Notes under the pieces: generated by a model | What the model saw: the letters and a program-made list of their open reading frames with translations, nothing else | Database searches by the model: none | Told to the model about the DNA's origin: nothing | Shown: positions 1-62,147 of the stretch, in pieces | Layout: every line of letters starts with the position of its first letter | Position numbering within the stretch: the first letter of the stretch is position 1 | Made by a program: the position numbers and the translations under genes | Source of the DNA: Escherichia coli | GTDB lineage: Bacteria; Pseudomonadota; Gammaproteobacteria; Enterobacterales; Enterobacteriaceae | Assembly: GCF_048403405.1 (NCBI RefSeq) | Contig: NZ_CP183129.1 | DNA: 64,000 nucleotides | Direction: 5' to 3' (one strand)

Positions 1-2
1 AT

Positions 3-551
3 CCGGTCAGCGATAACGCGGCGCTGACTGGGTTAAGTAAGCTTTTCCGGCACATTCAACCCGCCGTGAACGATCCTCAGGATCTGCGCGCAAAACTGGA
101 AATGCTGTGGGCGTCTTACTATGGCGGCGTAGCGATAACCCATGCGGGCACGCATCTCGTTCATGCGCTCTCCTACCCGTTAGGTGGCAAATATCATCTG
201 CCGCATGGCGTCGCGAATGCCATCTTGCTGGCGCCGTGCATGGCGTTTGTTCGCCCCTGGGCGGTCGAGAAATTTGCCCGGGTCTGGGATTGCATTCCCG
301 ATGCGGAAACCGCCCTGAGCGCGGAAGAAAAATCTCATGCCCTGGTGGCCTGGCTACAGGCATTAGTCAATCAACTCAAGCTACCCAACAATCTCGCGGA
401 TCTCGGCGTACCGCCAGAGGATATTGCCTCTCTTAGCGAGGCGGCACTGAACGTGAAGCGCCTTATGAACAATGCGCCGTGCCAGCTTGATCTACAGGAC
501 GTACAGGCCATTTACCAAACACTGTTTCCGCAACATCAATTTAAGGAATAA
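3..551 (+). CDS. Iron-containing alcohol dehydrogenase family protein, C-terminal part (gene continues upstream of the window)
   Basis: Open frame runs from the window edge to the stop at 551. The His-rich motif THAGTHLVHALSYPLGGKYHLPHGVANAILL resembles the metal-binding region of FucO/YqhD-type Fe-ADHs. The stop lies 3 nt before the next start codon. Confidence 0.6.
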   Translation, partial: PVSDNAALTGLSKLFRHIQPAVNDPQDLRAKLEMLWASYYGGVAITHAGTHLVHALSYPLGGKYHLPHGVANAILLAPCMAFVRPWAVEKFARVWDCIPDAETALSAEEKSHALVAWLQALVNQLKLPNNLADLGVPPEDIASLSEAALNVKRLMNNAPCQLDLQDVQAIYQTLFPQHQFKE

Positions 552-554
552 ATC

Positions 555-1442
555 ATGCCGAAAACCATTGAAGGTGTATTAACCGCCATCGTCACCCCGT
601 TTACCGCGACCGGCAGTCTGAATATCCCGGCGTTAAAAGTGCAGGTGAATCGTCAACTGGAAGCGGGTAACGCGATTTTTTGCGGCGGCACCAACGGCGA
701 GTTTTTTGTGTTGAATGAACAGGAGAAGCTCAGCGTTACGCAAACCTGCGTGGATGAAGTGGCTGGTCGTGCGCCGGTCGTGGCACACATTGGCGAGATC
801 TCGACGCGCGAAACGATTCGTCTGGGTCAGCAGATTGAAAAACTTGGCGTAGATGCTGTGTCGGTCATTACCCCTTACTTCGTACCGCTGAAACAGGAAG
901 AGTTGATTGCGCATTACAGCGCAATTGCCGACGCGCTGAGCATTCCGATGTTTCTCTATAACATCCCGGCCCGCACTGGCAATACGATCCAGCCGGAAAC
1001 CGCGCGTGCTCTGGCGTCGCATCCCAATATCATTGGGATTAAAGACAGCGCCGGAAGCGACGAAAGCCTGAAGGGTTTTCTCGATGCTGTGCGCAACATT
1101 GACGGCTTTAATGTACTCAACGGCCCGGATTCGCTGATCCATAAAGGGTTTGTCGAGGGGTGTTCAGCCTGTATCTCTGGGCTCGCCAACGTCGCACCGC
1201 GGGAAATCAATGCTATCTGGTCTCGCGTCCATGCCGGTGATATTGAAGGGTCTTATGAAGCACAGGAGAGTGTAACGGGCCTGCGTACCGACCTTTATAA
1301 AGTAGCGTTCTCCCCGGCTGCGGTGAAAAAAGCGTTGCAGCTTATGGGGCATGATGTTGGTGATAGCCGCTACGCGGTTAATTTCACGCCTGAACAGATC
1401 AGCGAGATTCAACAAATTATTCGTCATTATAACATTAATTAA
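555..1442 (+). CDS. DHDPS/N-acetylneuraminate-lyase family class I aldolase
   Basis: 295 aa. GGTNGEF motif resembles GTTGES of DapA; PYF and IIGIKDSAG contain the conserved Tyr and the Schiff-base Lys context of the DapA/NanA/KDG-aldolase family. RBS AAGGA lies upstream. Confidence 0.7.
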   Translation: MPKTIEGVLTAIVTPFTATGSLNIPALKVQVNRQLEAGNAIFCGGTNGEFFVLNEQEKLSVTQTCVDEVAGRAPVVAHIGEISTRETIRLGQQIEKLGVDAVSVITPYFVPLKQEELIAHYSAIADALSIPMFLYNIPARTGNTIQPETARALASHPNIIGIKDSAGSDESLKGFLDAVRNIDGFNVLNGPDSLIHKGFVEGCSACISGLANVAPREINAIWSRVHAGDIEGSYEAQESVTGLRTDLYKVAFSPAAVKKALQLMGHDVGDSRYAVNFTPEQISEIQQIIRHYNIN

Positions 1443-1501
1443 ATTAACTCTATTATCCAGCCCGCGATAAAGTTTAGATAAAGAGAATAAAGGATTACTC
1501 C

Positions 1502-2260
1502 ATGTTTTTGTGGTTTATGCAGCCAGATATCTGGCTCACTTTAATTACCCTCACCTTTCTGGAAATTATTCTTGGGGTGGATAATATTATTTTTCTTTCA
1601 CTGGTGGTGGCAAAACTTCCGTTATCACAACAAAATATGGCGCGTAAACTGGGTTTAAGCTGCGCGATGATTATGCGGATATTATTGCTGATATCCATTG
1701 CGTGGCTTTCACATATTACCCAGCCGCTTTTTACCGTGCTGACGCTGGAGATTTCGTTCCGCACGTTGATTCTGCTCGGGGGCGGGCTGTTCCTGATTTA
1801 TAAAGCGATACAGGAGATACGCGAAGAGCTGTCGCCCGCGCAGGAAGACGAACATGGCAGCGGATCGCGGCAACTGTCGTTGTGCGGTGCCATCGTACAG
1901 ATAATGCTGCTCGATATCGTGTTTAGCCTGGATTCGGTGATCACCGCCGTCGGCCTTTCTCAGCATATATTTATCATGATTGCCGCCGTAATGATTGCCG
2001 TCGGTGTCATGATGTTTGCGGCGAAAACAATTGGTGATTTCGTTAACGCCACGCCGTCAATAAAAATACTGGCGTTAACCTTTTTATTATTTGTCGGTGT
2101 ATTGCTGGTTGCCGATAGTCTCAACATTCATATTGCCAAAGAGTATCTCTACTTCGCGATATTTTTCTCATTAAGTGTTGAGACACTCAATATTATCCGT
2201 GAAAGAAGAAATAAAAAAGTTTCGACATTGATCGAAACGCATGAATCGCACTCGCATTAA
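1502..2260 (+). CDS. TerC/YgdQ-like (UPF0053) integral membrane protein
   Basis: 252 aa polytopic protein with LEIILGVDNIIFLSLVVAKLP and LDIVFSLDSVITAVG motifs typical of the TerC family. AAAGGA RBS. Visibly lower G+C (about 40 percent by eye) than its neighbours. Confidence 0.6.
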   Translation: MFLWFMQPDIWLTLITLTFLEIILGVDNIIFLSLVVAKLPLSQQNMARKLGLSCAMIMRILLLISIAWLSHITQPLFTVLTLEISFRTLILLGGGLFLIYKAIQEIREELSPAQEDEHGSGSRQLSLCGAIVQIMLLDIVFSLDSVITAVGLSQHIFIMIAAVMIAVGVMMFAAKTIGDFVNATPSIKILALTFLLFVGVLLVADSLNIHIAKEYLYFAIFFSLSVETLNIIRERRNKKVSTLIETHESHSH

Positions 2261-2295
2261 TAAATCTATTACCGACTTTAAGATGGAGTCTAACT

Positions 2296-3465
2296 ATGTC
2301 TGTAGCCCTTATTCGTGACGGCGTCATCCGTCCATCCGAAAACGATTCGCATGTGCTTACCGCCATGCTGCCCTCGTCCTGCCCACAAAACCACGCGGCG
2401 AATATTCTGCCTTTGCCGGATGGCGCGTTAATGTGCGTCTGGTTTGCGGGAACGCAGGAAGGTATTGCCGATATTTCTGTCTGGGGATCGCGATTGCCCG
2501 CTGGCGGGATGCAGTGGAGCGATGCGGTCAAACTTTCCCACGATGACACGCGTTCAGAGCAAAACCCAGTGCTGTTTCTCGCGCCGGATAACGTGCTGTG
2601 GCTGCTATGGACCGCACAAATATCCGGGAATCAGGACACCGCCATCGTCCGCTACCGTAAGTCAGACGACCTCGGACAAACCTGGGGCGAGATTGCCACG
2701 CTGCTCGATAAACCCGGCACGTTCATTCGCCAGCCGATCACGGTGCTTGATAACGGCAACTGGCTGCTGCCCGTCTTTTATTGCCGTACCCAACCCGGTG
2801 AAAAATGGGTCGGCAATGATGATATCAGCGCAGTGAAAATTTCCGCTGACGGTGGTCACTCCTGGCGCGATGTCGTGGTGCCGCAAAGTCTCGGCTGCGT
2901 TCATATGAATATCACAATGCTGCACGACAGTACGTTGGTTGCTCTCTTTCGAAGCCGTTGGGCAGACAACATCTATATCAGCCATTCAGTGGACAACGGC
3001 GAGAGTTGGTCGGTGCCGCAAGCTACCGAATTGCCCAACAACAATTCGTCTATTCAGGTAACGACGCTTGCCAGCGGCGAACTGGCGCTGGTGTACAACG
3101 CGATGAGTGCGGCAGGCGCAGTAGAACGTCGCGCGTCGCTTTATGACGAAATCGACGATGGCGACGACAGCCGCAAAGAACCGACAGCCGTCGGACGCTC
3201 CGCTTTCTGGGGGGCCCCACGCGCGCCGATGACGGTAGCGATTTCTGCCGATGGTGGGAAAAGCTGGCCGTGGCGGCGCAATCTCGATGAAGGCGACGGC
3301 TACTGCATGACCAACAATTCCCTGGAAAAGCTAAATCGTGAGTTCTCCTACCCCAGCATCAAACAAAGCCCGGACGGTACGCTACATATCGCTTACACCT
3401 GGTGGCGTCAGGCCATCAAGTACGTGCGCATCTCCCCCGAGTGGGTTAAGGGGCAGGCATCATGA
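2296..3465 (+). CDS. BNR/Asp-box repeat sialidase-like beta-propeller protein (GH33-like), apparently cytoplasmic
   Basis: 389 aa with four Asp-box motifs (SDDLGQTW, SADGGHSW, SVDNGESW, SADGGKSW). The N-terminus has no hydrophobic signal peptide. GGAG RBS. Confidence 0.65.
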   Translation: MSVALIRDGVIRPSENDSHVLTAMLPSSCPQNHAANILPLPDGALMCVWFAGTQEGIADISVWGSRLPAGGMQWSDAVKLSHDDTRSEQNPVLFLAPDNVLWLLWTAQISGNQDTAIVRYRKSDDLGQTWGEIATLLDKPGTFIRQPITVLDNGNWLLPVFYCRTQPGEKWVGNDDISAVKISADGGHSWRDVVVPQSLGCVHMNITMLHDSTLVALFRSRWADNIYISHSVDNGESWSVPQATELPNNNSSIQVTTLASGELALVYNAMSAAGAVERRASLYDEIDDGDDSRKEPTAVGRSAFWGAPRAPMTVAISADGGKSWPWRRNLDEGDGYCMTNNSLEKLNREFSYPSIKQSPDGTLHIAYTWWRQAIKYVRISPEWVKGQAS

Positions 3466-3932
3466 TTATCGGTAATCTCAACCATTTGTCGCTGGCGGGG
3501 CTTCCCGCCTGGGTGAGAAATATTCTGCTGTGCCCGGAGTGTTCGTTATCGGCGTTATCCGCCAGAGAGGACGGTCGCTGGCAACCTGAAGGATGTCGGT
3601 GGTTCTGCACGCTGGGAACTTCAGACACGCAACCCGCCGAACTCCGCCATACGGAGTATCACCATCTGTGGGCCGATATCCAGGTGGTGATTACTGGTTG
3701 TGAGGGCATTAATGCGGGAACGCGGCCCATCGCTCGCGAAAACGATGAAGAACGTAAGCCCGATCTGTTTATCGCCCCATCCCCTGAAAACAGTGTCGCC
3801 ATCACTCTACACCCCGGTGATTTCGCCGTCTTTATGCCTGAGGAACCTCACCAGGCGCTGTGCGCGATTGGCGCGGCTACGTCAGTACGCAAAGCGGTCT
3901 TTAAGGTACCGCGCGACATGCTGGAAGCCTAA
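3462..3932 (+). CDS. YhcH/YjgK/YiaL (DUF386) family protein, NanQ/EbgC-like
   Basis: 156 aa. C-terminal GDFAVFMPEEPH closely matches the conserved motif of E. coli YhcH. Start codon overlaps the upstream stop (ATGA), suggesting translational coupling. Confidence 0.65.
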   Translation: MIIGNLNHLSLAGLPAWVRNILLCPECSLSALSAREDGRWQPEGCRWFCTLGTSDTQPAELRHTEYHHLWADIQVVITGCEGINAGTRPIARENDEERKPDLFIAPSPENSVAITLHPGDFAVFMPEEPHQALCAIGAATSVRKAVFKVPRDMLEA

Positions 3933-3945
3933 AAGGAGAGAAAAA

Positions 3946-5226
3946 ATGACAATGGAAATGATCCTGGCATTAGGAATACTGGTCCTGATGATCGTGCTGA
4001 TCATGTCGGACAAAATGCCATTTGGCGCACCGCCACTGCTTGCGTGTTTATTGCTGGTTGTCTCGGGACTTTCGACCGTTCAACAGGCTTTTGCCGGATT
4101 CGTCAATCCAAGCGTGGTGATGATTGCAGGGTTTATGGTGGTCATGGCAGCGCTACAAAAAACCCGGCTTATCAGCAACGTTAAATCTGCGATGATAAGC
4201 CTGGTCAATAAAGGCAGTTACCGCAGCTACGGGCTGTTGTTAGTCATTGTTATGCTGGGTGCCAGTCTTGCAGGCACCGGCGCGACCGGTTATTACGTGC
4301 TGATTCTGTCGCTGGTATCCACCATTCCGTACAGTAAAAAGCTACCAACATCGAAATTAATGATGCCCCTGGGATTTGCCACCAACCACCCGCTTCTTCC
4401 TATCAATCTCGCGCTTCTCTTTGGCGTTACGGCGACCGTACTCGAAACCGCGGGTTTTCATCAGGAGATTTCGATGGGGCGCTTTGCGCTGGTGAATCTC
4501 ATCATGTCAGCGGCGTTCCTCGCATGGAGTCTTATTGCCTACCGTTTTCTTCCGGATCATCCCATTGCGGATGCTTCCGAGGATGCGCTGGCGGCACGCG
4601 AGGAAACGTTTAACGCCCTTCCTGCCTGGAAAGAATATTGCACTATTGCCGCATTCGCTGTCAGCGTTATCGGCATGATGCTAATGAACATTCTGGGAAA
4701 TATCGCCTTCGTTATTCCGGGTCTTGCGGGTGCGTTTGTTCTGATGATCGATGTACTGGACTTTAAAGAAGTTCGCGATCATATGGGAGCGCCGGTCATT
4801 TTAATGATGGCGGGGGTGATCGGTGTAGCTGATGCACTGGCGGGCACCGGCTTTACGGCGATGGTTGGCGATGCCGTTGCAGGTGTGCTCGGTTCTGGCG
4901 TCTCACCGTTTGTATTTATTGTCGCCTTTGCTTTGCTTACCAGTACCTGCGCCACCTTCACGGGTTCGAATATGGGGTCTGTTTATATTTTTGCCCCCAT
5001 CGCCATTGCCGCCTGTACCAGCCTTGGGCTTAACCCGACCGCTGCAGCGATTGCGGTGGTGATTTCAGGCTGGAACGGCGGCTATATGCCTATTGACGGA
5101 ATGCCAGCCATGATCCTCGGAATGGGGAAATACAAACTTCCCGAATTCTGGGTGTTCTCTGTACCAATGTATCTCATCCGCATTCTGGCGCTTTGTGCAG
5201 GCGCTGTTTTTATCTTCCCAATGTAA
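3946..5226 (+). CDS. Polytopic permease with two-repeat architecture (ion-transporter superfamily-like; exact family unresolved)
   Basis: 427 aa from the ATG preceded by a strong AAGGAG RBS; the ORF track's longer 508-aa frame overlaps the upstream gene. Multiple hydrophobic segments and an internal repeat (NPSVVMIAGFMVV / GAPVILMMAGVIGV). Confidence 0.5.
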   Translation: MTMEMILALGILVLMIVLIMSDKMPFGAPPLLACLLLVVSGLSTVQQAFAGFVNPSVVMIAGFMVVMAALQKTRLISNVKSAMISLVNKGSYRSYGLLLVIVMLGASLAGTGATGYYVLILSLVSTIPYSKKLPTSKLMMPLGFATNHPLLPINLALLFGVTATVLETAGFHQEISMGRFALVNLIMSAAFLAWSLIAYRFLPDHPIADASEDALAAREETFNALPAWKEYCTIAAFAVSVIGMMLMNILGNIAFVIPGLAGAFVLMIDVLDFKEVRDHMGAPVILMMAGVIGVADALAGTGFTAMVGDAVAGVLGSGVSPFVFIVAFALLTSTCATFTGSNMGSVYIFAPIAIAACTSLGLNPTAAAIAVVISGWNGGYMPIDGMPAMILGMGKYKLPEFWVFSVPMYLIRILALCAGAVFIFPM

Positions 5227-5233
5227 TCTCAGA

Positions 5234-5271
5234 CAAAAAAAGCGGCAGAGAAGATCCCTGCCGCTTTTTAT
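5234..5271. terminator. Bidirectional rho-independent terminator between the convergent permease gene and nagE
   Basis: A-tract, GC hairpin AGCGGCAG...CTGCCGCT, then T-tract. Confidence 0.55.
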
Positions 5272-5314
5272 TGTTGGATGCGACGCTGCCGTGTCGCATC
5301 AGGTATAAAGCAGA

Positions 5315-7261
5315 TTACTTTTTGATTTCATACAGCGGCGTTTGACCCGCCACGACATGGCCCTGAGCTTTAATGATCAAGCCGCTGAAATCGTCGATAT
5401 TGCTGCAAACCACCGGGCTAATCATCGAGCGGGCGTTAGCGTTCAGGTAATCCAGATCCATTTCCAGAATCGGTTGTCCTGCGCTTACCTGCGCGCCCTC
5501 TTCCACCAGACGTTTAAAACCTTTACCTTCCAGCGCTACGGTGTCGATACCCATATGGACGACGATCTCCGCGCCTTTTTCGGTTTCCAGGCAGAACGCG
5601 TGGTTGGTATTGAAGATTTTCACGATTGTCCCTGCGGCTGGTGATACGACGATTTTATCTGTCGGTTTCACCGCCACACCGTCACCCACCGCTTTGCTGG
5701 CGAATGCTTCGTCAGGAACCTGATCCAGTGCCACAACATCACCGGTAATCGGCGATACCAGCTCCGCGACAGACACCGCGTTTGGTATAGCCTGCGGTTT
5801 TGCTACAGGCGCGGCAGTTGCAGGCGCAGTTTCAGCTGACGTAGCGGCTACCGGACCACGGGCAACAACTTTCTTCATTGCATCGCCAATGGATTCCGCT
5901 TTCGCGCCAACAATCACCTGAATAGTCTGTTTGTTCAGTTTCACTACCCCAGAAGCACCCAGCCGTTTACACATCGCATCGTTGACGCGAGCCGAGTCAA
6001 CCACGGTCAGGCGCAGACGAGTAATACAGGCGTCAATTGCTTTCAGGTTGTCAGTGCCGCCAACCGCAGCAATATAGTTGGTCGCCAGTTGATTGAGGCC
6101 TTCTTCAGTGTTGCTGTTGGCTTCTTCAGTAACGATCTCATCTTCTTTATCTTCACGACCCGGCGTTTTCAGGTTGAACATGCGGATAACCAAACTGAAC
6201 ACCACGAAGTAGATAGCGAAGAAGACAACACCCATCACCAGCAGCATCCAGACGTTCTGGCTGGCGGCCGGCAGGTTATACATCAACGCGTAGTCGATAG
6301 CCCCCGCAGAGAAGGAGAAGCCCGCGTGGATACCCAGCAGCGTTGCCACAAACAGGCTGATACCGGTCAGCAGTGCGTGCAGGAGGTACAGCAGCGGCGC
6401 AAGGAACATGAACAGGAATTCCAGCGGCTCAGTCACACCGGTCAGGAACGCAGTAACAGCAACAGAAAGCAGCATACCGCCAACCATCGGACGACGCTCT
6501 TTCGGTGCTGCAAAGTACATCGCCAGCGCCGCACCCGGCAGACCGAACATCATGATCGGGAAGAAGCCGGACATGAACATCCCCGCGGTGCCGTCACCGG
6601 CATAGAAGCGGTTGATGTCACCGTGGAAAACCGTACCCGCCGCGTTGGTGAATTCACCAATCTGGAACCAGGCGATGGTGTTCAGTACCTGATGCAGACC
6701 GGTTGGGATCAGCAGACGGTTGATGAAACCAAAGATACCGGAACCCAGCGCGCCCGCAGAAACGATCCACTCGCCGCCTGCATGGATAGCGTGCTGTACC
6801 GGCGGCCAGACGTAACCAAAAATGGCCGCCAGCACCAGGCAGAAGAAGCCGGTGGCAATCGGCACAAAGCGTTTGCCGCCGAAGAAACTCAGGAAGTCCG
6901 GCAGTTTAATATCGGACCAACGGTTATAAGCTGCGCCACCAACCAGACCGGTAATGATACCCGCCAGTACACCCATGTTAATTTCCGGGTTGATGGTCAC
7001 CATCGCTTTGGTTAACACAAAGTAACCTACCGCACCCGCCAGCGCCGCCGCACCTGCGCTGTCTTTCGACCAGCTGGATGCCACACCGATGGCGAAGATT
7101 AATGCGAGGTTATCAAAAATCGCACCGCCCGCCTGGGCAATAAACGCAACGTTAAGTAAATCTGGCTGACCGAATCGCAGCAACAGCGCCGCCACCGGCA
7201 GCACCGCGATAGGGAGCTGTAACGCCCTACCGAGTCGCTGGAAAAAACCTAAAATATTCAT
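5315..7261 (-). CDS. nagE: PTS N-acetylglucosamine-specific EIICBA component
   Basis: 648 aa; sequence and position divergent from nagB match E. coli NagE. Confidence 0.93.
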   Translation of the reverse strand: MNILGFFQRLGRALQLPIAVLPVAALLLRFGQPDLLNVAFIAQAGGAIFDNLALIFAIGVASSWSKDSAGAAALAGAVGYFVLTKAMVTINPEINMGVLAGIITGLVGGAAYNRWSDIKLPDFLSFFGGKRFVPIATGFFCLVLAAIFGYVWPPVQHAIHAGGEWIVSAGALGSGIFGFINRLLIPTGLHQVLNTIAWFQIGEFTNAAGTVFHGDINRFYAGDGTAGMFMSGFFPIMMFGLPGAALAMYFAAPKERRPMVGGMLLSVAVTAFLTGVTEPLEFLFMFLAPLLYLLHALLTGISLFVATLLGIHAGFSFSAGAIDYALMYNLPAASQNVWMLLVMGVVFFAIYFVVFSLVIRMFNLKTPGREDKEDEIVTEEANSNTEEGLNQLATNYIAAVGGTDNLKAIDACITRLRLTVVDSARVNDAMCKRLGASGVVKLNKQTIQVIVGAKAESIGDAMKKVVARGPVAATSAETAPATAAPVAKPQAIPNAVSVAELVSPITGDVVALDQVPDEAFASKAVGDGVAVKPTDKIVVSPAAGTIVKIFNTNHAFCLETEKGAEIVVHMGIDTVALEGKGFKRLVEEGAQVSAGQPILEMDLDYLNANARSMISPVVCSNIDDFSGLIIKAQGHVVAGQTPLYEIKK

Positions 7262-7593
7262 CTTATTCCCCCTACGAGAACCCTATTTGGCTCGTTTAAA
7301 GCCGTATTTTTATTTTGCTGCAAATTGTACTGCCGATGTTCTGTAATCAGATTGTTAGATCATCTGCTACAGAGTGTGTGAAAATTTAATTCGTATCGCA
7401 AATTAAACGCGTGTCTTTTGTGAGTTTTGTCACCAAATATCGTTATCATCACTCCCTTTTACTGGCTAAACCAGAAAACTTATTTTATCATTCAAAAAAT
7501 CAGGTCGGATTGACGCCTGTCTGCGCAAATCCAGGTTACGCTTAAAGATGCCTAATCCGCCAACGGCTTACATTTTACTTATTGAGGTGAATA
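7262..7593. promoter_or_regulatory. Divergent nagE / nagBACD control region with CRP site and NagC operator-like palindrome
   Basis: CRP-like site TGTGAgttttgTCACC at 7419-7434; AT-rich palindrome TTAATTCGTATCGCAAATTAA at about 7386-7406 resembles a NagC operator. Confidence 0.55.
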
Positions 7594-9602
<2,009 letters not shown>

Positions 9603-39852: not shown

Positions 39853-40116
39853 ATGAAAACCAAACTTAACGAACTGCTTGAATTCCCTACTCCTTTTACT
39901 TACAAAGTTATGGGGCAGGCGTTACCTGAGCTGGTTGATCAGGTGGTTGAAGTGGTACAGCGCCATGCGCCAGGTGACTACACCCCAACGGTAAAACCAA
40001 GCAGCAAAGGCAACTACCACTCGGTATCTATCACTATCAACGCTACTCATATCGAGCAGGTTGAAACACTGTATGAAGAACTGGGCAAAATCGATATTGT
40101 CCGCATGGTTCTGTAA
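39853..40116 (+). CDS. ybeD: UPF0250 protein YbeD
   Basis: 87 aa; conserved position upstream of lipB. Confidence 0.88.
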
Positions 40117-40216
40117 CTCGCTTCTCCGTTACCCGGCTCCTGGTCGGGTAACTCCCCTCTCCTCGCTGTGATATACTTTTCCCCCACTTTTACTCATTCT
40201 CCACGGAGATGCCGTT

Positions 40217-40858
40217 TTGTATCAGGATAAAATTCTTGTCCGCCAGCTCGGTCTTCAGCCTTACGAGCCAATCTCCCAGGCTATGCATGAATTCACCGAT
40301 ACCCGCGATGAAAGTACCCTTGATGAAATCTGGCTGGTCGAGCACTATCCGGTATTTACCCAAGGGCAGGCAGGAAAAGCGGAGCACATTTTAATGCCGG
40401 GTGATATTCCGGTGATTCAGAGCGATCGCGGTGGGCAGGTGACTTATCACGGGCCGGGGCAACAGGTGATGTATGTGTTGCTTAACCTGAAACGCCGTAA
40501 ACTCGGTGTGCGTGAACTGGTGACCTTGCTTGAGCAAACAGTGGTGAATACCCTGGCTGAACTGGGTATAGAAGCGCATCCTCGGGCTGACGCGCCTGGT
40601 GTCTATGTCGGGGAAAAGAAAATTTGCTCACTGGGTTTACGTATTCGACGCGGTTGTTCATTCCACGGTCTGGCATTAAACGTCAATATGGATCTTTCAC
40701 CATTTTTACGTATTAATCCTTGTGGGTATGCCGGAATGGAAATGGCTAAAATATCACAATGGAAACCCGAAGCGACGACTAATAATATTGCACCGCGTTT
40801 ACTGGAAAATATTTTAGCGCTACTAAACAATCCTGACTTCGAATATATTACCGCTTAA
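40217..40858 (+). CDS. lipB: Octanoyltransferase (lipoyl(octanoyl) transferase)
   Basis: 213 aa; TTG start; recognised as LipB. Confidence 0.92.
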
Positions 40859-41117
40859 TTGCATACATCAATGGCCCAATTTACACTGGGTCATTACTCA
40901 TAATACCTGCTAATGCTTTACATCTCCTTCGCGTTTGTATATTTTCTTTATCACTTGCAGAAATGCGATGCTACGCCTTGCTCCGTAACTCACCCCATTG
41001 ATTAACTTATTGAAATAGTTGATTATGGTGAGCAAAAGCGTTCCGTTCCAATTAGACATAAGATTATTGTAATTTTTTTTAATATTATTTTTCCATGAAT
41101 AAAATTGGAGTAAGTGC

Positions 41118-42071
41118 GTGGATAGTAATAATCAAATTGAAACCTGTTTAAGCAGAAAGTCGTCAGAAGATAAACCACAAATATTTACAACCTTACGAAA
41201 TATTGATCTTAACCTTCTGACTATTTTTGAAGCTGTATATGTACATAAAGGGATCGTTAATGCAGCGAAAGTGCTTAATCTGACACCCTCGGCAATCAGT
41301 CAGTCTATTCAGAAACTGCGCGTTATATTCCCTGACCCATTGTTTATTCGCAAAGGCCAGGGTGTCACTCCTACCGCATTTGCGATGCATCTACATGAGT
41401 ATATCAGTCAGGGCCTTGAGTCCATTCTTGGCGCGCTGGATATCGAAGGAAGCTATGATAAGCAACGAACGATAACCATTGCGACCACCCCCTCGGTCGG
41501 AGCCCTGGTCCTTCCTGTCATCTATCGGGCGATTAAATCTCACTATCCGCAGCTTTTACTGCGCAACCCCCCCATCAGCGACGCGGAAAACCAACTCAGT
41601 CAGTTTCAAACCGATCTCATCATCGATAACATGTTTTGCACCAATCGTACGGTGCAACATCATGTTCTGTTCACCGACAATATGGTGTTAATTTGCCGCG
41701 AGGGAAATCCACTACTCTCTTTAGAAGATGACAGGGAGACTATCGACAACGCTGCGCATATACTCCTGTTACCGGAAGGGCAAAATTTCAGCGGTCTGCG
41801 GCAGAGAGTTCAAGAGATGTTTCCGGACCGGCAAATCAGTTTCACCAGCTACAACATTTTGACAATCGCTGCACTGGTTGCCAACAGTGACATGTTAGCG
41901 ATTATTCCCAGCCGTTTTTATAACCTGTTTAGCCGTTGCTGGCCGCTGGAAAAACTGCCTTTTCCGTCCTTAAATGAGGAGCAAATAGATTTCTCTATCC
42001 ACTACAACAAATTCAGCCTGCGTGATCCCATCCTGCACGGGGTAATAGATGTTATCCGTAATGCATTTTGA
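41118..42071 (+). CDS. ybeF: LysR-family transcriptional regulator
   Basis: 317 aa; N-terminal LysR HTH (LTPSAISQSIQKLR). Confidence 0.85.
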   Translation: MDSNNQIETCLSRKSSEDKPQIFTTLRNIDLNLLTIFEAVYVHKGIVNAAKVLNLTPSAISQSIQKLRVIFPDPLFIRKGQGVTPTAFAMHLHEYISQGLESILGALDIEGSYDKQRTITIATTPSVGALVLPVIYRAIKSHYPQLLLRNPPISDAENQLSQFQTDLIIDNMFCTNRTVQHHVLFTDNMVLICREGNPLLSLEDDRETIDNAAHILLLPEGQNFSGLRQRVQEMFPDRQISFTSYNILTIAALVANSDMLAIIPSRFYNLFSRCWPLEKLPFPSLNEEQIDFSIHYNKFSLRDPILHGVIDVIRNAF

Positions 42072-42279
42072 AAAAGTATTGTTACAGCCAGATCACAGCG
42101 AAGAACGAAAAAATGGCACAATCCAACAACAATTTTACATTTTCGCGACCGCTTTGGCTGCTTTCAGGTCCGTTTCAATGATATACTGCCAGTCGTTAAT
42201 TCAAAAATAGTTGATAATTACAACAATCTATTGAATTGAAACGCTTTCCTTCGTAATTCGCAACTGGAACACGCACGCT

Positions 42280-43245
42280 ATGAGTAAACCCATTGTGATG
42301 GAACGCGGTGTTAAATACCGCGATGCCGATAAGATGGCCCTTATCCCGGTTAAAAACGTGGCAACAGAGCGCGAAGCCCTGCTGCGCAAGCCGGAATGGA
42401 TGAAAATCAAGCTTCCAGCGGACTCTACACGTATCCAGGGCATCAAAGCCGCAATGCGCAAAAATGGCCTGCATTCTGTCTGCGAGGAAGCCTCCTGCCC
42501 TAACCTGGCGGAATGCTTCAACCACGGCACAGCAACGTTTATGATCCTCGGCGCTATTTGTACCCGCCGTTGTCCGTTCTGTGACGTTGCCCACGGTCGC
42601 CCGGTAGCTCCGGATGCCAATGAACCAGTGAAACTGGCGCAGACCATTGCCGATATGGCGCTGCGTTATGTGGTTATCACCTCCGTTGACCGTGATGACC
42701 TGCGCGATGGCGGTGCCCAACACTTTGCGGATTGCATTACTGCCATTCGGGAAAAAAGCCCGCAAATCAAAATTGAAACTCTGGTGCCGGATTTCCGCGG
42801 TCGTATGGATCGTGCTCTGGATATTCTGACCGCCACACCACCAGATGTATTCAACCATAACCTGGAAAACGTACCGCGTATTTACCGTCAGGTACGGCCT
42901 GGTGCGGATTACAACTGGTCGCTGAAGCTGCTGGAACGCTTTAAAGAAGCGCATCCGGAAATCCCGACCAAGTCTGGTCTGATGGTGGGTCTGGGTGAAA
43001 CCAATGAAGAAATTATTGAGGTAATGCGCGACCTGCGCCGTCATGGTGTGACGATGCTAACGCTGGGGCAATATTTGCAGCCAAGCCGCCATCACCTGCC
43101 GGTTCAACGTTACGTTAGCCCGGATGAGTTCGACGAAATGAAAGCCGAAGCGCTGGCGATGGGCTTTACCCATGCTGCATGCGGTCCGTTTGTCCGCTCG
43201 TCTTACCACGCCGATTTGCAGGCGAAAGGGATGGAAGTTAAGTAA
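42280..43245 (+). CDS. lipA: Lipoyl synthase (radical SAM)
   Basis: 321 aa; CPNLAEC and CTRRCPFC cysteine clusters. Confidence 0.95.
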
Positions 43246-43275
43246 TCCTGTAATAATTACTTACATCTATCTGAT

Positions 43276-43306
43276 AAAAAACCCGCTTTTTGAAGCGGGT
43301 TTTTTT
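43276..43306. terminator. Bidirectional terminator between lipA and tatE
   Basis: AAAAA-ACCCGCTT-tttg-AAGCGGGT-TTTTTT. Confidence 0.7.
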
Positions 43307-43346
43307 GTATCGAACAAGATATTGAGGGAGCGTCCTGCTCGCCACG

Positions 43347-43550
43347 TCACTCTTTATGAGAGAGCTTTTCAGCCTGAAGATCAACGTCTGCGCCTTTTTT
43401 CGCCGCAGCATCGTCATCATTCATCGCCTTCTTGAACCCTTTAATGGCCGCTCCAAGGTCTCCGCCCAGCGTACGTAACTTCTTAGTCCCAAACAGCAGA
43501 ACGACCAGCGCCGCAACTACCAGCAGTTTGGTAATACTAATCTCACCCAT
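43347..43550 (-). CDS. tatE: Sec-independent protein translocase TatE
   Basis: 67 aa; recognised as TatE (TatA paralog). Confidence 0.92.
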
Positions 43551-43678
43551 AGATACCTTCTTGACATATAACCGGCAACAGAACGCGCCTTAAAAACCAG
43601 AGAATATTAACGGTCATTCGACGCGCGCACACAATAGCAATCTGTAACAAGGTGAATCAAGCGCCGAGTAAAAAAACA

Positions 43679-44473
43679 TCATAATAATTGCGGCGGCGCA
43701 AAGCGACGGTTGTTTAAAACGGGAAGTTGCGCGCGCACCTGACGCACACGTTCGGGCGTCACTTCCGCCATAATGAGTGCAGGCATTTCTGACGCTGCCG
43801 CAATGGTGACGCCAAAGGGATCTATAATCCGGCTTTGCCCGATATTTTTGTTCCCGCACTCCCCCGCCGCCACCATATAACAGGTGGTATCCAGCGCACG
43901 AGCGGCAAGCAACGTTGACCAGTGATGCTCTTTGAGCGGCCCACGAACCCAGGCGGCAGGAAGTACCAGGATTTCAGCTCCCTGTAATGCCTGTGCCAGC
44001 GCCAGCTCTGGAAAGCGTAAGTCATAACAGGTCATCAGACCGACCTTCATCCCTTCCACCTCCAGTAACGGAGCTATTTCATTACCAGCATCAACATGGC
44101 GTGATTCCTGAATGGCAAATGCATCATAGAGATGCAGTTTGGCATAACGGGCGACGATGTTTCCTGCCTGTAGCGCCACCAGCATATTCCATGCGCGCCC
44201 CGGCGTTGAAGGAACATGAATCGTCAGAATTGTCGTCATCATGTTACGTTTACTTTCTCGCCGTAAACGTCCGAGGAATTCGCCTTCCAGCAGCTGTGCT
44301 GATTTAACCGATAGATCTGCATCATGATCATCGCGCGCCAGCAATGCTTCCGGCAGGACAAACAGCGATACGTCGTTTTCCGCCGCCTGCGCCATCAACG
44401 AGGCACAAATCTCAGCGTTCTTTTCCCACACAGATGTAACAGCAAACTGTCCTGCGGCAACCAGCATTGCCAC
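43679..44473 (-). CDS. ybeM: C-N hydrolase (nitrilase superfamily) protein, apparently intact
   Basis: 264-aa uninterrupted ORF at the position of ybeM, which I recall as a pseudogene in K-12. Confidence 0.7.
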
Positions 44474-44562
44474 CTCCTCCTGTCAGAGTCGTAAAATTCG
44501 CCAACGGCGATTATTCGGCGTTACACTTATCACTCATACAAATCAAATAGCAGGATTTTGCA

Positions 44563-44946
44563 GTGTTACAACTTCTTTTAGCAGTTTTTATTGGCGGTGG
44601 TACGGGAAGCGTGGCGAGATGGCTGTTAAGTATGCGATTTAACCCGCTGCATCAAGCGATTCCGTTGGGGACGCTGGCTGCAAACCTGATTGGGGCATTC
44701 ATCATAGGAATGGGATTCGCCTGGTTTAGCAGGATGACGAACATTGATCCAGTGTGGAAAGTATTAATCACCACCGGATTTTGTGGCGGTCTAACAACCT
44801 TCTCAACATTTTCGGCAGAAGTGGTGTTTTTGTTACAAGAGGGCCGCTTTGGCTGGGCGTTACTGAACGTTTTCGTCAACCTTTTGGGGTCTTTTGCCAT
44901 GACCGCACTGGCTTTCTGGCTGTTTTCCGCCTCAACCGCACACTAA
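44563..44946 (+). CDS. crcB: Fluoride channel CrcB/FluC
   Basis: 127 aa; GTG start; small four-helix membrane protein. Confidence 0.9.
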
Positions 44947-44951
44947 AGACC

Positions 44952-44980
44952 AAAAAAAACCCGCTGATTAAGCGGGTTTT
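44952..44980. terminator. Bidirectional terminator between crcB and cspE
   Basis: A-tract, CCCGCT-gatta-AGCGGG hairpin, T-tract. Confidence 0.65.
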
Positions 44981-44999
44981 GAATTCTTGCTGACGTATC

Positions 45000-45209
45000 T
45001 TACAGAGCGATTACGTTTGCAGCAGAAGGGCCTTTGGCACCGTTAGTGATTTCGAACTCTACGCGCTGACCTTCAGCAAGAGTTTTAAAACCATTAGTCT
45101 GGATTGCAGAGAAGTGTACGAACACGTCTTTGCTGCCGTCTTCCGGAGTAATGAAACCGAATCCTTTGGACTCATTAAACCACTTAACGTTACCTTTAAT
45201 CTTAGACAT
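45000..45209 (-). CDS. cspE: Cold-shock-domain protein CspE
   Basis: 69 aa from [20 protein letters not shown]; ORF-track N-terminal extension rejected. Confidence 0.95.
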
Positions 45210-45383
45210 CAAAATTACCTTTACATGAAAAATAGACACAAATGCTGTGTCGGTTACCAGTACACCAATTGTGGTACGCTTTGTCCAGTGCAACTTTACT
45301 AAAAAGTGATAAAAGTCGCGTTATTTTTGATGTTACTTATTTTAGTTATTGATTTTAAAGAAGTTACTAAAACTTCATTTGTC

Positions 45384-45944
45384 TCAAAACTGAAAGCGCA
45401 TCCAGGCAAAGTACACATTGCCATTGTTGTAGGTACCCGGAATGTAGGTCATCTGAAAAGTCACTGGGCCATAACCCACGGAGGCCAATGGCAGTAGAAC
45501 CGGGAGAGGGATGTAATTCCAGTTATCGCGTGCCGTTACGCCAGCGGTGAATCCCAGACCTAAATGAAAATTTTCATCCGCCAGCGGTCGCCAGGTACTT
45601 TCCCATCCGTATCCGGCAATCGGTTCCCATTTGTTCCACGAGTCCTTAAATGCCATGGCATACAGGCCATGCCAGTTTCCTTTTTCATCCCAACGCGACT
45701 GACCAAAACCGCCACCCCACGGTCGCTCGTTATAGCGATCGGTTTTTTCTTTGTCGTAAGCGAAACGTGCATGCCAGGTGATGGCAGGAATATATAAATC
45801 ATAATGTTCAGGCTGTTGCCAGGTTTGTGCAATATTTTCTCTAAACGTTGTCATCCACTCATCTGCGTTAGCAAAAACTTTACCAACGCTGATTAACTGA
45901 ATAAAAACAAAGGAAAAGATAGCGACATATTGACTCACGTTCAT
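45384..45944 (-). CDS. pagP: Lipid A palmitoyltransferase PagP
   Basis: 186 aa from an internal ATG (MNVS...) with signal peptide; outer-membrane beta-barrel enzyme. Confidence 0.9.
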
Positions 45945-46532
45945 TTGTGACCATAAAACATTTATCAAAAATCTACTACTAGCATAGCAAAGCTACAATT
46001 AACATAACCTTAATAGCCCCAACATGAAGAATAATCTGAATAGCTGCTCTATTTATTTCCGCTTGTTCAAGATAAATATTTCCGCGCATCGATTAAAGAT
46101 GATTCGTCGTTTTCTGCGATGGGAATAGTCAAAAAAGAAAAACCAAGTATTTTTTGATGACAAAATGCAACCAAGGAAAAATTTCTTTATTTTTTAATTG
46201 GATACAAAAATCACCTTAACGAAGAATATAATATATATCGTCAACCCATGCTCATGGCAGATTATTTTCTGAGCACGCAACCGCAGCTAACACCATTGCT
46301 ATTAACAAATTTGCATCAATCCGCCATCAATTTACACACATTATTATGTGGTAATTGCCAAACGCTAAATATGCGTTTTGTTATCTATGTATAAAAACAG
46401 CAACTTCAATGTCTTAATGGCAGTTTTTCTTGATTTTAATCAGCATTCACCGCCAATTTATTGGGCATATTTTTTCCTTAAGTTTTAGGAATTTTTTATT
46501 ATTTACTTTGGGGCCTGGAGACAGGAAAAATT

Positions 46533-47918
46533 ATGCTGACATTCATTGAACTCCTTATTGGGGTTGTGGTTATTGTGGGTGTAGCTCGCTACATCATTAA
46601 AGGGTATTCCGCCACTGGCGTGTTATTTGTCGGTGGCCTGTTATTGCTGATTATCAGTGCCATTATGGGGCACAAAGTGTTACCGTCCAGCCAGGCTTCA
46701 ACAGGCTACAGCGCCACGGATATCGTTGAATACGTTAAAATATTGCTAATGAGCCGCGGCGGCGACCTCGGCATGATGATTATGATGCTGTGTGGCTTTG
46801 CCGCTTACATGACCCATATCGGCGCGAATGATATGGTGGTCAAGCTGGCGTCAAAACCATTGCAGTATATTAACTCCCCTTACCTGCTGATGATTGCCGC
46901 CTATTTTGTCGCCTGTCTGATGTCTCTGGCCGTCTCTTCCGCGACCGGTCTGGGTGTTTTGCTGATGGCAACCCTGTTTCCGGTGATGGTAAACGTTGGT
47001 ATCAGCCGTGGTGCAGCTGCTGCTATTTGTGCCTCCCCGGCGGCGATTATTCTCGCACCGACTTCAGGGGATGTGGTGCTGGCGGCGCAGGCTTCCGAAA
47101 TGTCGCTGATTGACTTCGCCTTCAAAACGACGCTGCCTATCTCAATTGCTGCAATTATCGGCATGGCGATCGCCCACTTCTTCTGGCAACGTTATCTGGA
47201 TAAAAAAGAGCACATCTCTCATGAAATGTTAGATGTCAGTGAAATCACCACCACTGCTCCTGCGTTTTATGCCATTTTGCCGTTCACGCCGATCATCGGA
47301 GTGCTGATTTTTGACGGCAAATGGGGTCCGCAATTACACATCATCACTATTCTGGTGATTTGTATGCTGATTGCCTCCATTCTGGAGTTCATCCGCAGCT
47401 TTAATACCCAGAAAGTTTTCTCTGGTCTGGAAGTGGCTTATCGCGGGATGGCAGATGCGTTTGCTAACGTGGTGATGCTGCTGGTTGCCGCTGGGGTATT
47501 CGCTCAGGGGCTTAGCACCATCGGCTTTATTCAAAGTCTGATTTCTATCGCCACCTCGTTTGGTTCGGCGAGTATCATCCTGATGCTGGTATTAGTGATC
47601 CTGACAATGCTGGCGGCAGTCACGACCGGTTCAGGCAATGCGCCGTTTTATGCGTTTGTTGAGATGATCCCGAAACTGGCGCACTCTTCCGGCATTAACC
47701 CGGCGTATTTGACTATCCCAATGCTGCAGGCGTCAAACCTCGGTCGTACCCTGTCACCCGTTTCTGGCGTAGTCGTTGCGGTTGCCGGGATGGCGAAAAT
47801 CTCACCATTTGAAGTCGTAAAACGCACCTCGGTGCCGGTGCTTGTTGGTTTGGTGATTGTTATCGTTGCTACAGAGCTGATGGTGCCAGGAACGGCAGCC
47901 GCGGTCACAGGCAAGTAA
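46533..47918 (+). CDS. dcuC: Anaerobic C4-dicarboxylate transporter DcuC
   Basis: 461 aa polytopic protein; synteny next to dpiA. Confidence 0.92.
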   Translation: MLTFIELLIGVVVIVGVARYIIKGYSATGVLFVGGLLLLIISAIMGHKVLPSSQASTGYSATDIVEYVKILLMSRGGDLGMMIMMLCGFAAYMTHIGANDMVVKLASKPLQYINSPYLLMIAAYFVACLMSLAVSSATGLGVLLMATLFPVMVNVGISRGAAAAICASPAAIILAPTSGDVVLAAQASEMSLIDFAFKTTLPISIAAIIGMAIAHFFWQRYLDKKEHISHEMLDVSEITTTAPAFYAILPFTPIIGVLIFDGKWGPQLHIITILVICMLIASILEFIRSFNTQKVFSGLEVAYRGMADAFANVVMLLVAAGVFAQGLSTIGFIQSLISIATSFGSASIILMLVLVILTMLAAVTTGSGNAPFYAFVEMIPKLAHSSGINPAYLTIPMLQASNLGRTLSPVSGVVVAVAGMAKISPFEVVKRTSVPVLVGLVIVIVATELMVPGTAAAVTGK

Positions 47919-47958
47919 ATAGTCATGCCGGAGGCAAGTTTCCTCCGGCTTTATCATG

Positions 47959-48639
47959 TCACCCACTGTGGTATATGCGTTGCGGTCTGCCAACTTTGCC
48001 GTGAACAATTTCAGCAATAATCAGATGGCGGCTGGCGCAATATTCAAGATAACGTCTGGCAGTGGTGCGGCTGATAGTCAGTGCCTGCGCCACCGTTTCT
48101 GCCGTATGTTGCACACCAGGCTCTTTAAACAGTTTTCGCACTGCGTTTAGCGTCAAGGGGTCAATGCCGGTCGGCAGTTCGTCTTTGGGTTCACCGCGAG
48201 CATAGGCATTAAACATCTCATCAATTTGCTTCTGGCTGGCGCTATCAATACTTTCCAGCATATGTTTACGCTGGCGGAAACGGGTTAGCGTTTGCCCCAG
48301 ACGTTCATAGGCAATTGGCTTAATGAGATAATCAAATACACCACAACGTACGGCTTCAGACACCGTTTCCATATCACTGGCTGCAGTGGTAAACACCACG
48401 TCGCCGGGATAATGCGCCTGCACCAGTTCATGCAGTAAATTAATCCCTCTACCGTCAGGAAGATAGTTATCGAGCAAGATTAGCCCCGGCTTAAAACGCT
48501 CGATCATCATTCGGGCCTGCGCCAGGTTTCCCGCCAGTAATATCTGACTGAATCCGGGAATGTGACGAATATATTCCGCATGCATCTCTGCCAGCGGCGT
48601 TTCGTCCTCAACGATCAATAGGGTTAATGGAGCTGTCAT
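47959..48639 (-). CDS. dpiA: Two-component response regulator DpiA (CitB)
   Basis: 226 aa; receiver domain plus HTH; overlaps dpiB end. Confidence 0.92.
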   Translation of the reverse strand: MTAPLTLLIVEDETPLAEMHAEYIRHIPGFSQILLAGNLAQARMMIERFKPGLILLDNYLPDGRGINLLHELVQAHYPGDVVFTTAASDMETVSEAVRCGVFDYLIKPIAYERLGQTLTRFRQRKHMLESIDSASQKQIDEMFNAYARGEPKDELPTGIDPLTLNAVRKLFKEPGVQHTAETVAQALTISRTTARRYLEYCASRHLIIAEIVHGKVGRPQRIYHSG

Positions 48640-50266: not shown

Positions 50267-50644
50267 TGTTTTCCTTGCGGGTTGTCCCGAGCCTCTTTGA
50301 CGAATGTAATTAAAATGTTGAATCAAAATACATAGATATTAAATATAATCGTGGCAAATTTTATTCATTAAATCAATTAAATCACTTAAACCTGCGGGTC
50401 ACTTCGTAATTACATTAATTAAAAAACTTAAAACCATTAAATAAATAAAAAACCACTAACTCTATGTGAAATAAATCAAAATTTCACGCTGCAATACTCC
50501 TTAGGATGTATAGCGAAAGGAGAAAAAGATATACCTCGATCGCCCCCTTTCTCCCAAGTGAAAATAAAAGGTTATCAGTTTGCAACATCGAACAACATTT
50601 GTTGCAAATCGATAACAACATGCACCTTCAGGATACTATTTATT

Positions 50645-51703: not shown

Positions 51704-51717
51704 GAAACAGGTGAAAA

Positions 51718-52014
51718 ATGAAAATAAACCAGCCCGCCGTTGCAGGCACCCTTGAGTCTGGGGATGTGATGATACGCATCGCCCCACTCGATACGCAGGA
51801 TATCGACCTGCAAATCAACAGCAGCGTTGAGAAACAGTTTGGCGATGCAATTCGCACCACCATTCTGGACGTTCTCGCCCGCTACAACGTGCGCGGCGTA
51901 CAGCTGAATGTCGATGATAAAGGCGCACTGGACTGCATTTTACGTGCACGACTGGAAGCCCTGCTGGCACGCGCCAGCGGTATCCCGGCTCTGCCATGGG
52001 AGGATTGCCAATGA
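51718..52014 (+). CDS. citD: Citrate lyase acyl carrier protein (gamma subunit)
   Basis: 98 aa; synteny. Confidence 0.93.
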
Positions 52015-61583: not shown

Positions 61584-62147
61584 TTAGATTTTACCAACCA
61601 GGTCCAGAGACGGAGCCAGAGTTGCTTCACCTTCTTTCCATTTAGCCGGGCAAACTTCACCTGGGTGAGAAGCTACGTACTGTGCTGCTTTGATTTTACG
61701 CAGCAGGTCAGACGCGTCACGGCCAATGCCTTCAGCGGTAACTTCGATTGCCTGGATGATACCCTGCGGGTCAACAACGAAGGTCGCACGGTCAGCCAGA
61801 CCTTCATCTTCACGCATGTTGTCGAAGTTACGGGTCAGGGCGCCAGTCGGGTCGCCGATCATCGCATATTTGATTTTAGCGATGGTTTCAGAGCTGCTGT
61901 GCCATGCTTTGTGGGTGAAGTGAGTATCGGTAGATACTGCGTATACGTCTACGCCCAGTTTCTGCAGTTCTTCGTAGTGGTCAGCAACGTCACCCAGTTC
62001 GGTCGGGCATACGAAAGTAAAGTCAGCCGGGTAGAAAAAGAAGACGCTCCAGCGGCCTTCGGTATCTTTTTCGGTGATTTCGATGAATTCGCCGTTTTTG
62101 AATGCCTGGTTTTTAAAAGGTTTAATTTTGGTGTTAATCAAGGACAT
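61584..62147 (-). CDS. ahpC: Alkyl hydroperoxide reductase subunit C (peroxiredoxin)
   Basis: 187 aa; peroxidatic Cys in FTFVCPTE and resolving Cys near the C-terminus. Confidence 0.96.

Follow-up and report, generated by a model that had tools for sequence, protein, structure and literature searches.

What does the permease of the glnS-nagE island of Escherichia coli bring into the cell, and does the family to which it belongs tell us? The permease gene lies at positions 3946 to 5226 of the 64,000-nucleotide stretch that we analyzed (one strand of contig NZ_CP183129.1, RefSeq assembly GCF_048403405.1; hereafter the window), in an island of nine genes. A preliminary description of this gene, made from the sequence letters, had recognized a polytopic carrier, had left its family open, and had expected the family, once assigned, to determine the substrate that the island handles. 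We favor the explanation, with a probability of roughly 0.6, that the protein is a DASS/SLC13-like secondary carrier performing the uptake step of a catabolic island. The substrate is probably an acid sugar of plant pectin, not a sialic acid.

Family and fold of the permease

The gene is placed as follows.

3946 to 5226, + strand: permease open reading frame, 426 amino acids (427 codons with the stop)

Its ATG has a strong Shine-Dalgarno sequence, AAAGGAGAG, 7 nt to the 5' side, and RefSeq places the gene at the same coordinates in strain E2348/69 (WP_000177663.1, 'SLC13 family permease'). A mechanical list of open reading frames and the old annotation of APEC O1 start the gene at the GTG at 3700, giving a 508-residue product that overlaps the yhcH-like gene. 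That form is an over-extended start, and we prefer the start at 3946 because of its Shine-Dalgarno sequence and the support of its orthologs. The protein is indeed polytopic: its GRAVY (grand average of hydropathy) is 1.07, hydrophobic stretches span it entirely, and its AlphaFold2 model is all-helical (pLDDT 83.8, pTM 0.77). The internal two-repeat signature that had been noticed earlier is also real. Compared as single sequences, residues 1-215 and 216-426 align with E=0.003 and 18.7% identity (BLASTP); with a 51-sequence family alignment, hhalign matches the N-terminal half (4-203) to the C-terminal half (229-425) over 190 columns (probability 99.5%, E=1.3e-22).

Two Pfam models match the permease above their cutoffs. 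The top one, CitMHS (PF03600; 87 bits against a cutoff of 31.9, E=1.7e-24, residues 16-342), is matched also by 51 of 51 relatives in the permease subfamily, and the second is Na_sulph_symp (PF00939; 48.4 bits against 27, E=9e-13, residues 6-416). Because the permease found no match in the PDB as a single-sequence phmmer query, a family profile was required; we built one from 51 full-length relatives and searched it against all PDB sequences. The best match was to VcINDY, over the full length (E=1.6e-44), and the others were human NaCT (E=8e-35), chloroplast DiT1 (E=2e-33), LaINDY (E=3e-22), Pho90 (E=1e-15), ArsB (10tp; E=4.8e-9) and the TRAP DctM subunit (E=4e-6). Foldseek comparisons of the predicted model gave the same ranking (TMq 0.73-0.78 to NaDC3, 8uvc, and VcINDY, 4f35; TM 0.70 to ArsB; about 0.65 to SiaQM). 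By these alignments the predicted model has the DASS fold, which is recognized by scaffold and transport domains and two re-entrant hairpins.

DASS/SLC13 (TC 2.A.47), with VcINDY, is therefore the closest known system by profile and by structure, with two homologous halves and hairpin tips; the permease resembles its bacterial members in length (about 430 residues). The resemblance has limits. Identity to VcINDY is 14-16% in structural alignment, the second tip (FTGSNMGSV) keeps Ser-Asn but has an inserted Gly and a Met instead of Thr/Val, and the genes around the permease form a cluster for acid-sugar catabolism, not for the metabolism of C4-dicarboxylates. An exhaustive HMMER search of 1.84 billion cluster representatives returned 1813 relatives at E<=1e-3, of which 52 reach E<=1e-30, numbers that point to a small subfamily, well separated from both mainstream DASS and mainstream CitMHS.

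Other carrier classes were considered. The preliminary description had held that this is not the MFS carrier NanT, nor a TRAP or ABC system, and these exclusions stand: no Pfam or NCBIfam MFS model matches the permease, DctM gives no match at E<=0.01, and the island has no binding-protein gene. A TRAP DctQ/DctM pair like YiaMN, guessed from open reading frames of 156 and 427 residues, was rejected, the upstream 156-residue protein being YhcH/DUF386. Checking for an arsenite pump, which had been named as an assignment that would change the picture, gave a negative answer, with no ArsB match in Pfam at E<=0.01, no ars genes nearby, and a profile match far weaker than that to DASS. CitMHS, ArsB and YbiR-type permeases do have the superfamily fold in common with the permease, PF03600 being its highest Pfam score, but there is no sign of metal-citrate transport. 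On profile searches and a predicted model, then, the protein is a divergent DASS/SLC13-like carrier of the ion-transporter superfamily, as had been suspected from the repeats, and the question of its family is largely settled.

The uptake slot in related clusters

In E2348/69, where the island is complete, one strand carries the gene for a DeoR regulator and those for PdxA2 (D-threonate-4-phosphate dehydrogenase) and DtnK (D-threonate kinase), the last two of which lie just upstream of our window. The divergent arm carries an iron-containing alcohol dehydrogenase (Fe-ADH), a DHDPS-family aldolase, a TerC-family protein, a BNR_2 protein, a YhcH/DUF386 protein and the permease. The preliminary description had named the permease as the one transporter that the island has. 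As a statement on recognizable organic-solute carriers this stands; a second integral membrane protein, of the TerC family (1502-2260), is nevertheless encoded.

The same permease is co-linear with the DUF1537 kinase, PdxA, Fe-ADH, DHDPS and BNR_2 genes in E. coli, Klebsiella, Kluyvera, Actinobacillus, Paenibacillus, Bacillus salacetis and Anaeromicropila, and in clusters of this type it is the sole recognizable carrier of organic solutes. The cluster of Anaeromicropila herbilytica, for example, contains the kinase, BNR_2, Fe-ADH, DHDPS, PdxA, DUF386 and permease genes together with a sigma-54 regulator. We also scanned the BNR_2 protein against approximately 100,000 species genomes, which yielded 80 loci; in 55 of these, three or more of the genes for PdxA2, DtnK, Fe-ADH and DHDPS lie within 10 kb. 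Overwhelmingly, the loci belong to bacteria that live with plants or pectin: Pantoea, Erwinia, Pectobacterium, Dickeya, Rahnella, Kosakonia, Phytobacter, Gilliamella, Bradyrhizobium, Burkholderia, Paenibacillus and members of the Bacillus pumilus group. An SSF-family symporter is present in 61 of the 80 loci, its stop codon overlapping the BNR_2 start, and a DASS-like permease in 6; in the four of the remaining 13 that we examined, the transporter is of the TAXI-TRAP type (Vibrio), the Opp-type ABC class (Propionivibrio) or an Nramp-like kind. Sinorhizobium meliloti is reported to use an ABC system (PMC12928451). In Actinobacillus the permease gene stands directly upstream of BNR_2, which is the position of the SSF symporter in the 61 clusters.

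Because the position is filled by an SSF or another transporter in related clusters, we assign the permease to the substrate-uptake slot of the pathway, and it is very probable that it imports the substrate of the island. The expectation that its family would determine that substrate did not survive this comparison. The slot is filled by at least five types of transporter, and transporter family is therefore no guide to substrate here.

One alternative is that the permease supplies DtnK and PdxA2 by importing D-threonate as such, or a tetronate akin to it, with the sialidase-like protein, aldolase and alcohol dehydrogenase forming a separate entry route. E. coli K-12 requires a heterologous permease for D-threonate use (PMC10079672), and on a 3-kb metagenome contig a 31%-identical relative of the permease lies beside a PdxA gene, the other enzymes not being visible on so short a piece. 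In clusters of our type, however, the upstream enzymes would be left with no supply of substrate, since the permease is the only recognizable carrier; moreover, it can be exchanged for an SSF gene whose end overlaps the start codon of BNR_2, and in Actinobacillus it directly precedes BNR_2. We regard import of D-threonate as distinctly unlikely. The gene on the other side of the 31%-identical relative encodes an FAD-dependent oxidoreductase, and an association with acid-sugar pathways of the PdxA type may be general in the wider subfamily of the permease; the contigs of two more distant relatives were too short for their neighborhoods to inform.

A different kind of alternative would make the permease a generic carrier of di- or tricarboxylates (citrate, succinate or tartrate) or of an inorganic anion, co-acquired with the enzymes and functionally unrelated to them. 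The Pfam names 'Citrate transporter' and 'Sodium:sulfate symporter' would suit such a carrier, and the gene does seem to have moved as a separate cassette, because the E. coli permease shares 76-78% identity with those of Clostridia, Bacillus and Paenibacillus, against 25-48% for the neighboring enzymes (62% for BNR_2 in one Paenibacillus locus). Yet wherever flanking DNA sufficed, across Proteobacteria and Firmicutes, the permease was found within this type of cluster, and its small subfamily stands well apart from mainstream DASS and CitMHS; we give the generic carrier hardly any credence. The enzymes of the E. coli island are 70-86% identical to those of enterobacterial SSF-type clusters. 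With a permease so similar to those of Firmicutes and enzymes so similar to those of these enterobacterial clusters, the island looks chimeric, as though the transporter cassette had been swapped in by transfer between phyla.

Enzymes of the island and a candidate substrate

The window contains these further genes of the island, and a structure at the island's right edge.

1 to 551, + strand: Fe-ADH, C-terminal part (Pfam ADH_Fe_C); the gene begins upstream of the window
555 to 1442, + strand: DHDPS/NanA-family class I pyruvate aldolase, 295 amino acids (Pfam DHDPS, E=1e-61)
1502 to 2260, + strand: TerC-family membrane protein, 252 amino acids (Pfam TerC, E=4e-46)
2296 to 3465, + strand: BNR_2 protein, a sialidase-type six-bladed beta-propeller of 389 amino acids (Pfam BNR_2, E=8.7e-64)
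3462 to 3932, + strand: YhcH/DUF386 protein, 156 amino acids (Pfam DUF386, E=2e-26)
5236 to 5272, no strand: hairpin with A-run and T-run flanks, AAAAAAAGCGGCAG-N9-CTGCCGCTTTTTAT, read by eye from the sequence, between the convergent permease and nagE genes

Two enzymes of the island are identified at the level of equivalogs. DtnK and PdxA2, whose genes are adjacent and overlapping in E2348/69, pass the curated equivalog models for D-threonate kinase (NF047819; 533.5 bits against a cutoff of 450) and D-threonate-4-phosphate dehydrogenase (NF002891; 680.3 bits against 583), and these two activities are enough to turn D-threonate into dihydroxyacetone phosphate (DHAP) (PMC10079672). The Fe-ADH, 385 residues in its full-length form in E2348/69, has as its best NCBIfam and PDB relatives the lactaldehyde, 4-hydroxybutyrate and methanol dehydrogenases, all scoring below equivalog cutoffs. 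The aldolase has its Schiff-base Lys in the motif GIKDS and a DapA-type Arg in YNIPARTG (residues 135-142), and falls short of every equivalog model that it was scored against (dapA, 191 against 206; NanA, 114 against 382 and 147.8 against 281; KdgD, 87 against 374). At the position that corresponds to DapA Arg138 and is occupied by Leu in K-12 NanA, each of the eight island aldolases that we aligned has an Arg or a Lys. The BNR_2 protein gave no match in the PDB by sequence alone (single-sequence phmmer), and the top Foldseek matches of its AlphaFold2 model (pLDDT 91.4) are all GH33 sialidases (for example, 1eus: TMq 0.73, rmsd 2.7), at 12-17% identity. It is presumably cytoplasmic, because its N-terminus has no hydrophobic stretch of the signal-peptide kind. 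The start of the YhcH gene overlaps the BNR_2 stop by 4 nt, and the YhcH protein scores 91.5 bits on the NCBIfam NanQ equivalog, below the cutoff of 160.

If a D-threonate end, a pyruvate-yielding aldolase and an Fe-ADH acting between aldehyde and alcohol are to be joined, the simplest intermediate aldehyde would be the C4 acid-aldehyde D-threuronate; the substrate of the aldolase would therefore be a 3-deoxy-hept-2-ulosaric acid. We worked through the stereochemistry of one such compound, 3-deoxy-D-lyxo-heptulosaric acid (Dha). In its Fischer projection C4 and C5 are left and C6 is right; cleavage between C3 and C4 leaves OHC-C5(L)-C6(R)-COOH, and this, reduced and renumbered from the carboxylate, has C2 left and C3 right, which is D-threonate. 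Four other types of substrate were tried on paper and rejected, each giving an aldolase product with no route to D-threonate through an alcohol dehydrogenase: 3-deoxy-D-manno-octulosonic acid (Kdo) gives arabinose, N-acetylneuraminic acid (Neu5Ac) or the related Kdn gives N-acetylmannosamine (ManNAc) or mannose, keto-deoxy-glucarate gives tartronate semialdehyde, and 3-deoxy-arabino-heptulosonate gives erythrose.

Several properties of the island are in keeping with Dha. DapA Arg138 binds the carboxylate of aspartate semialdehyde, itself a C4 acid-aldehyde, and the conserved basic residue at this position in the island aldolases is therefore a hint of a substrate with a distal carboxylate. 4-Hydroxybutyrate dehydrogenase acts on succinate semialdehyde and is a C4 acid-semialdehyde reductase; the kinship of the Fe-ADH to it, as judged by sequence, lends support to a step on a C4 acid-aldehyde. 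In plants Dha is known only from side chain D of rhamnogalacturonan-II (RG-II), and it is related to sialic acid and Kdo (PMC12168206). The plant- and pectin-associated hosts are consistent with such a source, and the sialidase fold and NanQ-like protein fit Dha because Kdo and Dha are sialic-acid-like sugars. A dicarboxylic substrate also suits both a DASS-like carrier and the TAXI-TRAP alternative. Dha or a Dha-glycoside is accordingly the candidate that we put forward, tentatively and at well below even odds.

Put together, the pathway would run as follows, with the direction of transport, the coupling ion, the order of steps and the identity of the substrate all being matters that we infer. 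By analogy with VcINDY-like carriers, the permease would be a dimeric elevator-type transporter, probably cation-coupled, with a re-entrant hairpin in each of its two homologous halves, and would import the substrate of the island. The imported compound would first meet the sialidase-fold BNR_2 protein, acting as a cytoplasmic ketosidase on a small glycoside such as Araf-Dha or Dha-GalA. The YhcH-like protein is proposed as an anomerase, or ring-opening helper, for the ulosonic acid, which would reach the aldolase with its chain open, much as Neu5Ac does through NanQ; an anomerase role for YhcH is described in PMC8141875. The aldolase would then release pyruvate and D-threuronate, the Fe-ADH would reduce the aldehyde to D-threonate, and DtnK and PdxA2 would convert this to DHAP and CO2.

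This scheme parallels two known systems. In the nan system (NanT, SiaT or SiaPQM with sialidase, NanQ and NanA), an ulosonic acid or its glycoside is similarly imported, released, ring-opened and cleaved by an aldolase, and there too the type of transporter is interchangeable between species; in the island, unlike the nan system, the branch downstream of the aldolase consists of Fe-ADH, then D-threonate kinase, then PdxA2. The glucarate/galactarate pathway (GarL, GarR and GarK) would be analogous in its chemistry, a keto-deoxy-aldarate giving pyruvate and an acid-semialdehyde that is reduced to a hydroxy-acid and phosphorylated, with the proposed island route one carbon longer (a C4 product, D-threonate, rather than the C3 product of the Gar enzymes). 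The enzymes themselves are unrelated: GarL is a class II aldolase, GarR a beta-hydroxyacid dehydrogenase that reduces tartronate semialdehyde and GarK a glycerate kinase, against the class I DHDPS-family aldolase, Fe-ADH and DUF1537 kinase of the island.

The likeness to the nan system raises the alternative of a sialic acid (Neu5Ac) island, which the earlier comparison with sialic acid carriers had implied and in which the permease would be a fourth or fifth type of sialic acid transporter. A GH33-like fold, a NanA-family aldolase, a NanQ-family protein and an adjacent nag operon could all be read in this way, and related clusters use in this slot carriers of the SSF family, to which the sialic acid transporter SiaT belongs. 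Against this, the curated NanA and NanQ cutoffs are failed, nanK and nanE are absent among the island genes, the aldolase has the DapA-type Arg and not the Leu of NanA, and the permease clusters invariably come with Fe-ADH, DtnK and PdxA2, enzymes that the breakdown of Neu5Ac does not use. The hosts are largely associated with plants, and the nag adjacency is accidental, as the Klebsiella island is located elsewhere in the chromosome. A Neu5Ac island is very improbable.

Another ulosonic or acid sugar, or its glycoside, is a further alternative: a plant or microbial C7 acid other than Dha, or some compound that still feeds D-threonate. The synteny evidence serves it as well as it serves Dha, the divergent substrate-binding motifs of the permease would allow it, and an SDR (short-chain dehydrogenase/reductase) gene of unexplained role, together with stand-alone SSF-BNR_2-SDR units, hints at chemistry that our scheme does not capture. 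Among natural ulosonic acids, however, we infer that only a 3-deoxy-heptulosaric acid of threo configuration at C5/C6 would give D-threonate through an aldolase and a reductase; Kdo leads to D-arabinose and Neu5Ac to ManNAc, and the cluster has no enzymes for either. We consider another acid sugar unlikely, and return to uptake of Dha or its glycoside by a DASS/SLC13-like carrier.

Several observations weigh against this reading. At the level of the carrier, the permease scores 56.7 bits on TIGR00785, the curated DASS model of NCBIfam, where 198.6 are required. Ser-Asn-Thr at the first hairpin tip makes the Na+/carboxylate site in VcINDY (SNTAT), and SNT-bearing relatives of the permease have SNTGT, but the tip in the permease itself reads SLAGTGATG; because the hairpin motifs diverge, we do not transfer the substrate or the Na+ coupling of VcINDY to it. 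At the level of the clusters, most orthologs use the SSF symporter rather than the permease, and SSF carriers are not known for dicarboxylate transport. The SDR gene, present in 57 of the 80 clusters, is absent from the E. coli island. In some Pantoea, Enterobacter cancerogenus and Bradyrhizobium the SSF-BNR_2-SDR trio occurs with no DtnK, PdxA2, Fe-ADH or aldolase gene within 10 kb, which suggests that the imported compound has another route of breakdown, downstream of uptake, in these hosts; within the group of Pantoea rodasii the trio adjoins a LysR regulator and a divergent Iso_dh-family dehydrogenase (PF00180). At the level of the substrate, import of free Dha would leave the sialidase-fold protein with no obvious role, and the idea of a glycoside is ad hoc. 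Finally, a literature search found no paper that assigns the cluster or that proposes or tests a Dha pathway, and the single study found to describe the nagE-glnS island, a genome paper, lists it as uncharacterized (PMC12928451).

The remaining features bear on the edges of the island and on its neighborhood. The hairpin at 5236-5272 is likely a bidirectional terminator at the right edge of the island; a consensus terminator scan did not call it, because its loop is 9 nt. Between it and the stop codon of nagE, at the junction of island and core, lies a REP (repetitive extragenic palindromic)-like imperfect palindrome at 5273-5310, GGATGCGACGCTGCCGTGTCGCATCAGG. The TerC gene, between those for the aldolase and BNR_2, occupies the slot that the SSF symporter holds in 61 of the 80 related clusters. 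TerC and the permease occur together only in the enterobacterial variant (E. coli, Klebsiella and Kluyvera), TerC being absent from the Firmicute and Actinobacillus versions. An Rfam scan of positions 1-8000 found no riboswitch or other RNA, and the TerC gene is therefore not preceded by a yybP-ykoY element. Elsewhere in the window, G+C content falls to 0.42-0.47 at 40001-52000 and 62001-64000, compared with approximately 0.51-0.54 in the rest, and these could be further horizontally acquired segments.

Distribution and significance of the island

The island region matches 1,537 of 5,426 complete E. coli genomes, 1,046 of which cover at least 80% of the query, and E2348/69 and APEC O1 are among the carriers. 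Positions 1-5300 of the window are 100% identical to E. coli GN02461 and MS 69-1 and 98.9% identical to E2348/69. In K-12 the island is absent and nagE and glnS are adjacent, 202 bp apart. The nagE-glnS region corresponds to 'GR 6' of a 2026 genome paper, where it is common to strains of extraintestinal pathogenic E. coli (ExPEC) such as CFT073 and to the adherent-invasive strain LF82 (PMC12928451). All nine genes also occur in Klebsiella pasteurii, there at another place in the chromosome.

The permease is a divergent member of a known and already annotated superfamily, and the interest lies in its setting, not in the carrier itself. About one-fifth to one-quarter of complete E. coli genomes carry the island, it encodes a complete but uncharacterized pathway, and it is common to Klebsiella, Dickeya, Pectobacterium, Pantoea, Gilliamella, rhizobia and Firmicutes. 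For an 'unknown sugar island' we now have a specific prediction that is cheap to test, in which Dha would yield pyruvate and D-threuronate, the latter passing through D-threonate to DHAP. It is possible, although doubtful, that this is the first Dha catabolic pathway to be described and that the permease is the first transporter of Dha or a Dha-glycoside, a carrier of the DASS kind taken into service for a dicarboxylic sugar that resembles sialic acid. If so, the island would reveal a natural source of D-threonate and a rationale for the DtnK/PdxA2 pair, and would suggest that fragments of RG-II are scavenged by B2/ExPEC E. coli, by Klebsiella, by soft-rot pathogens and by Gilliamella of the bee gut.

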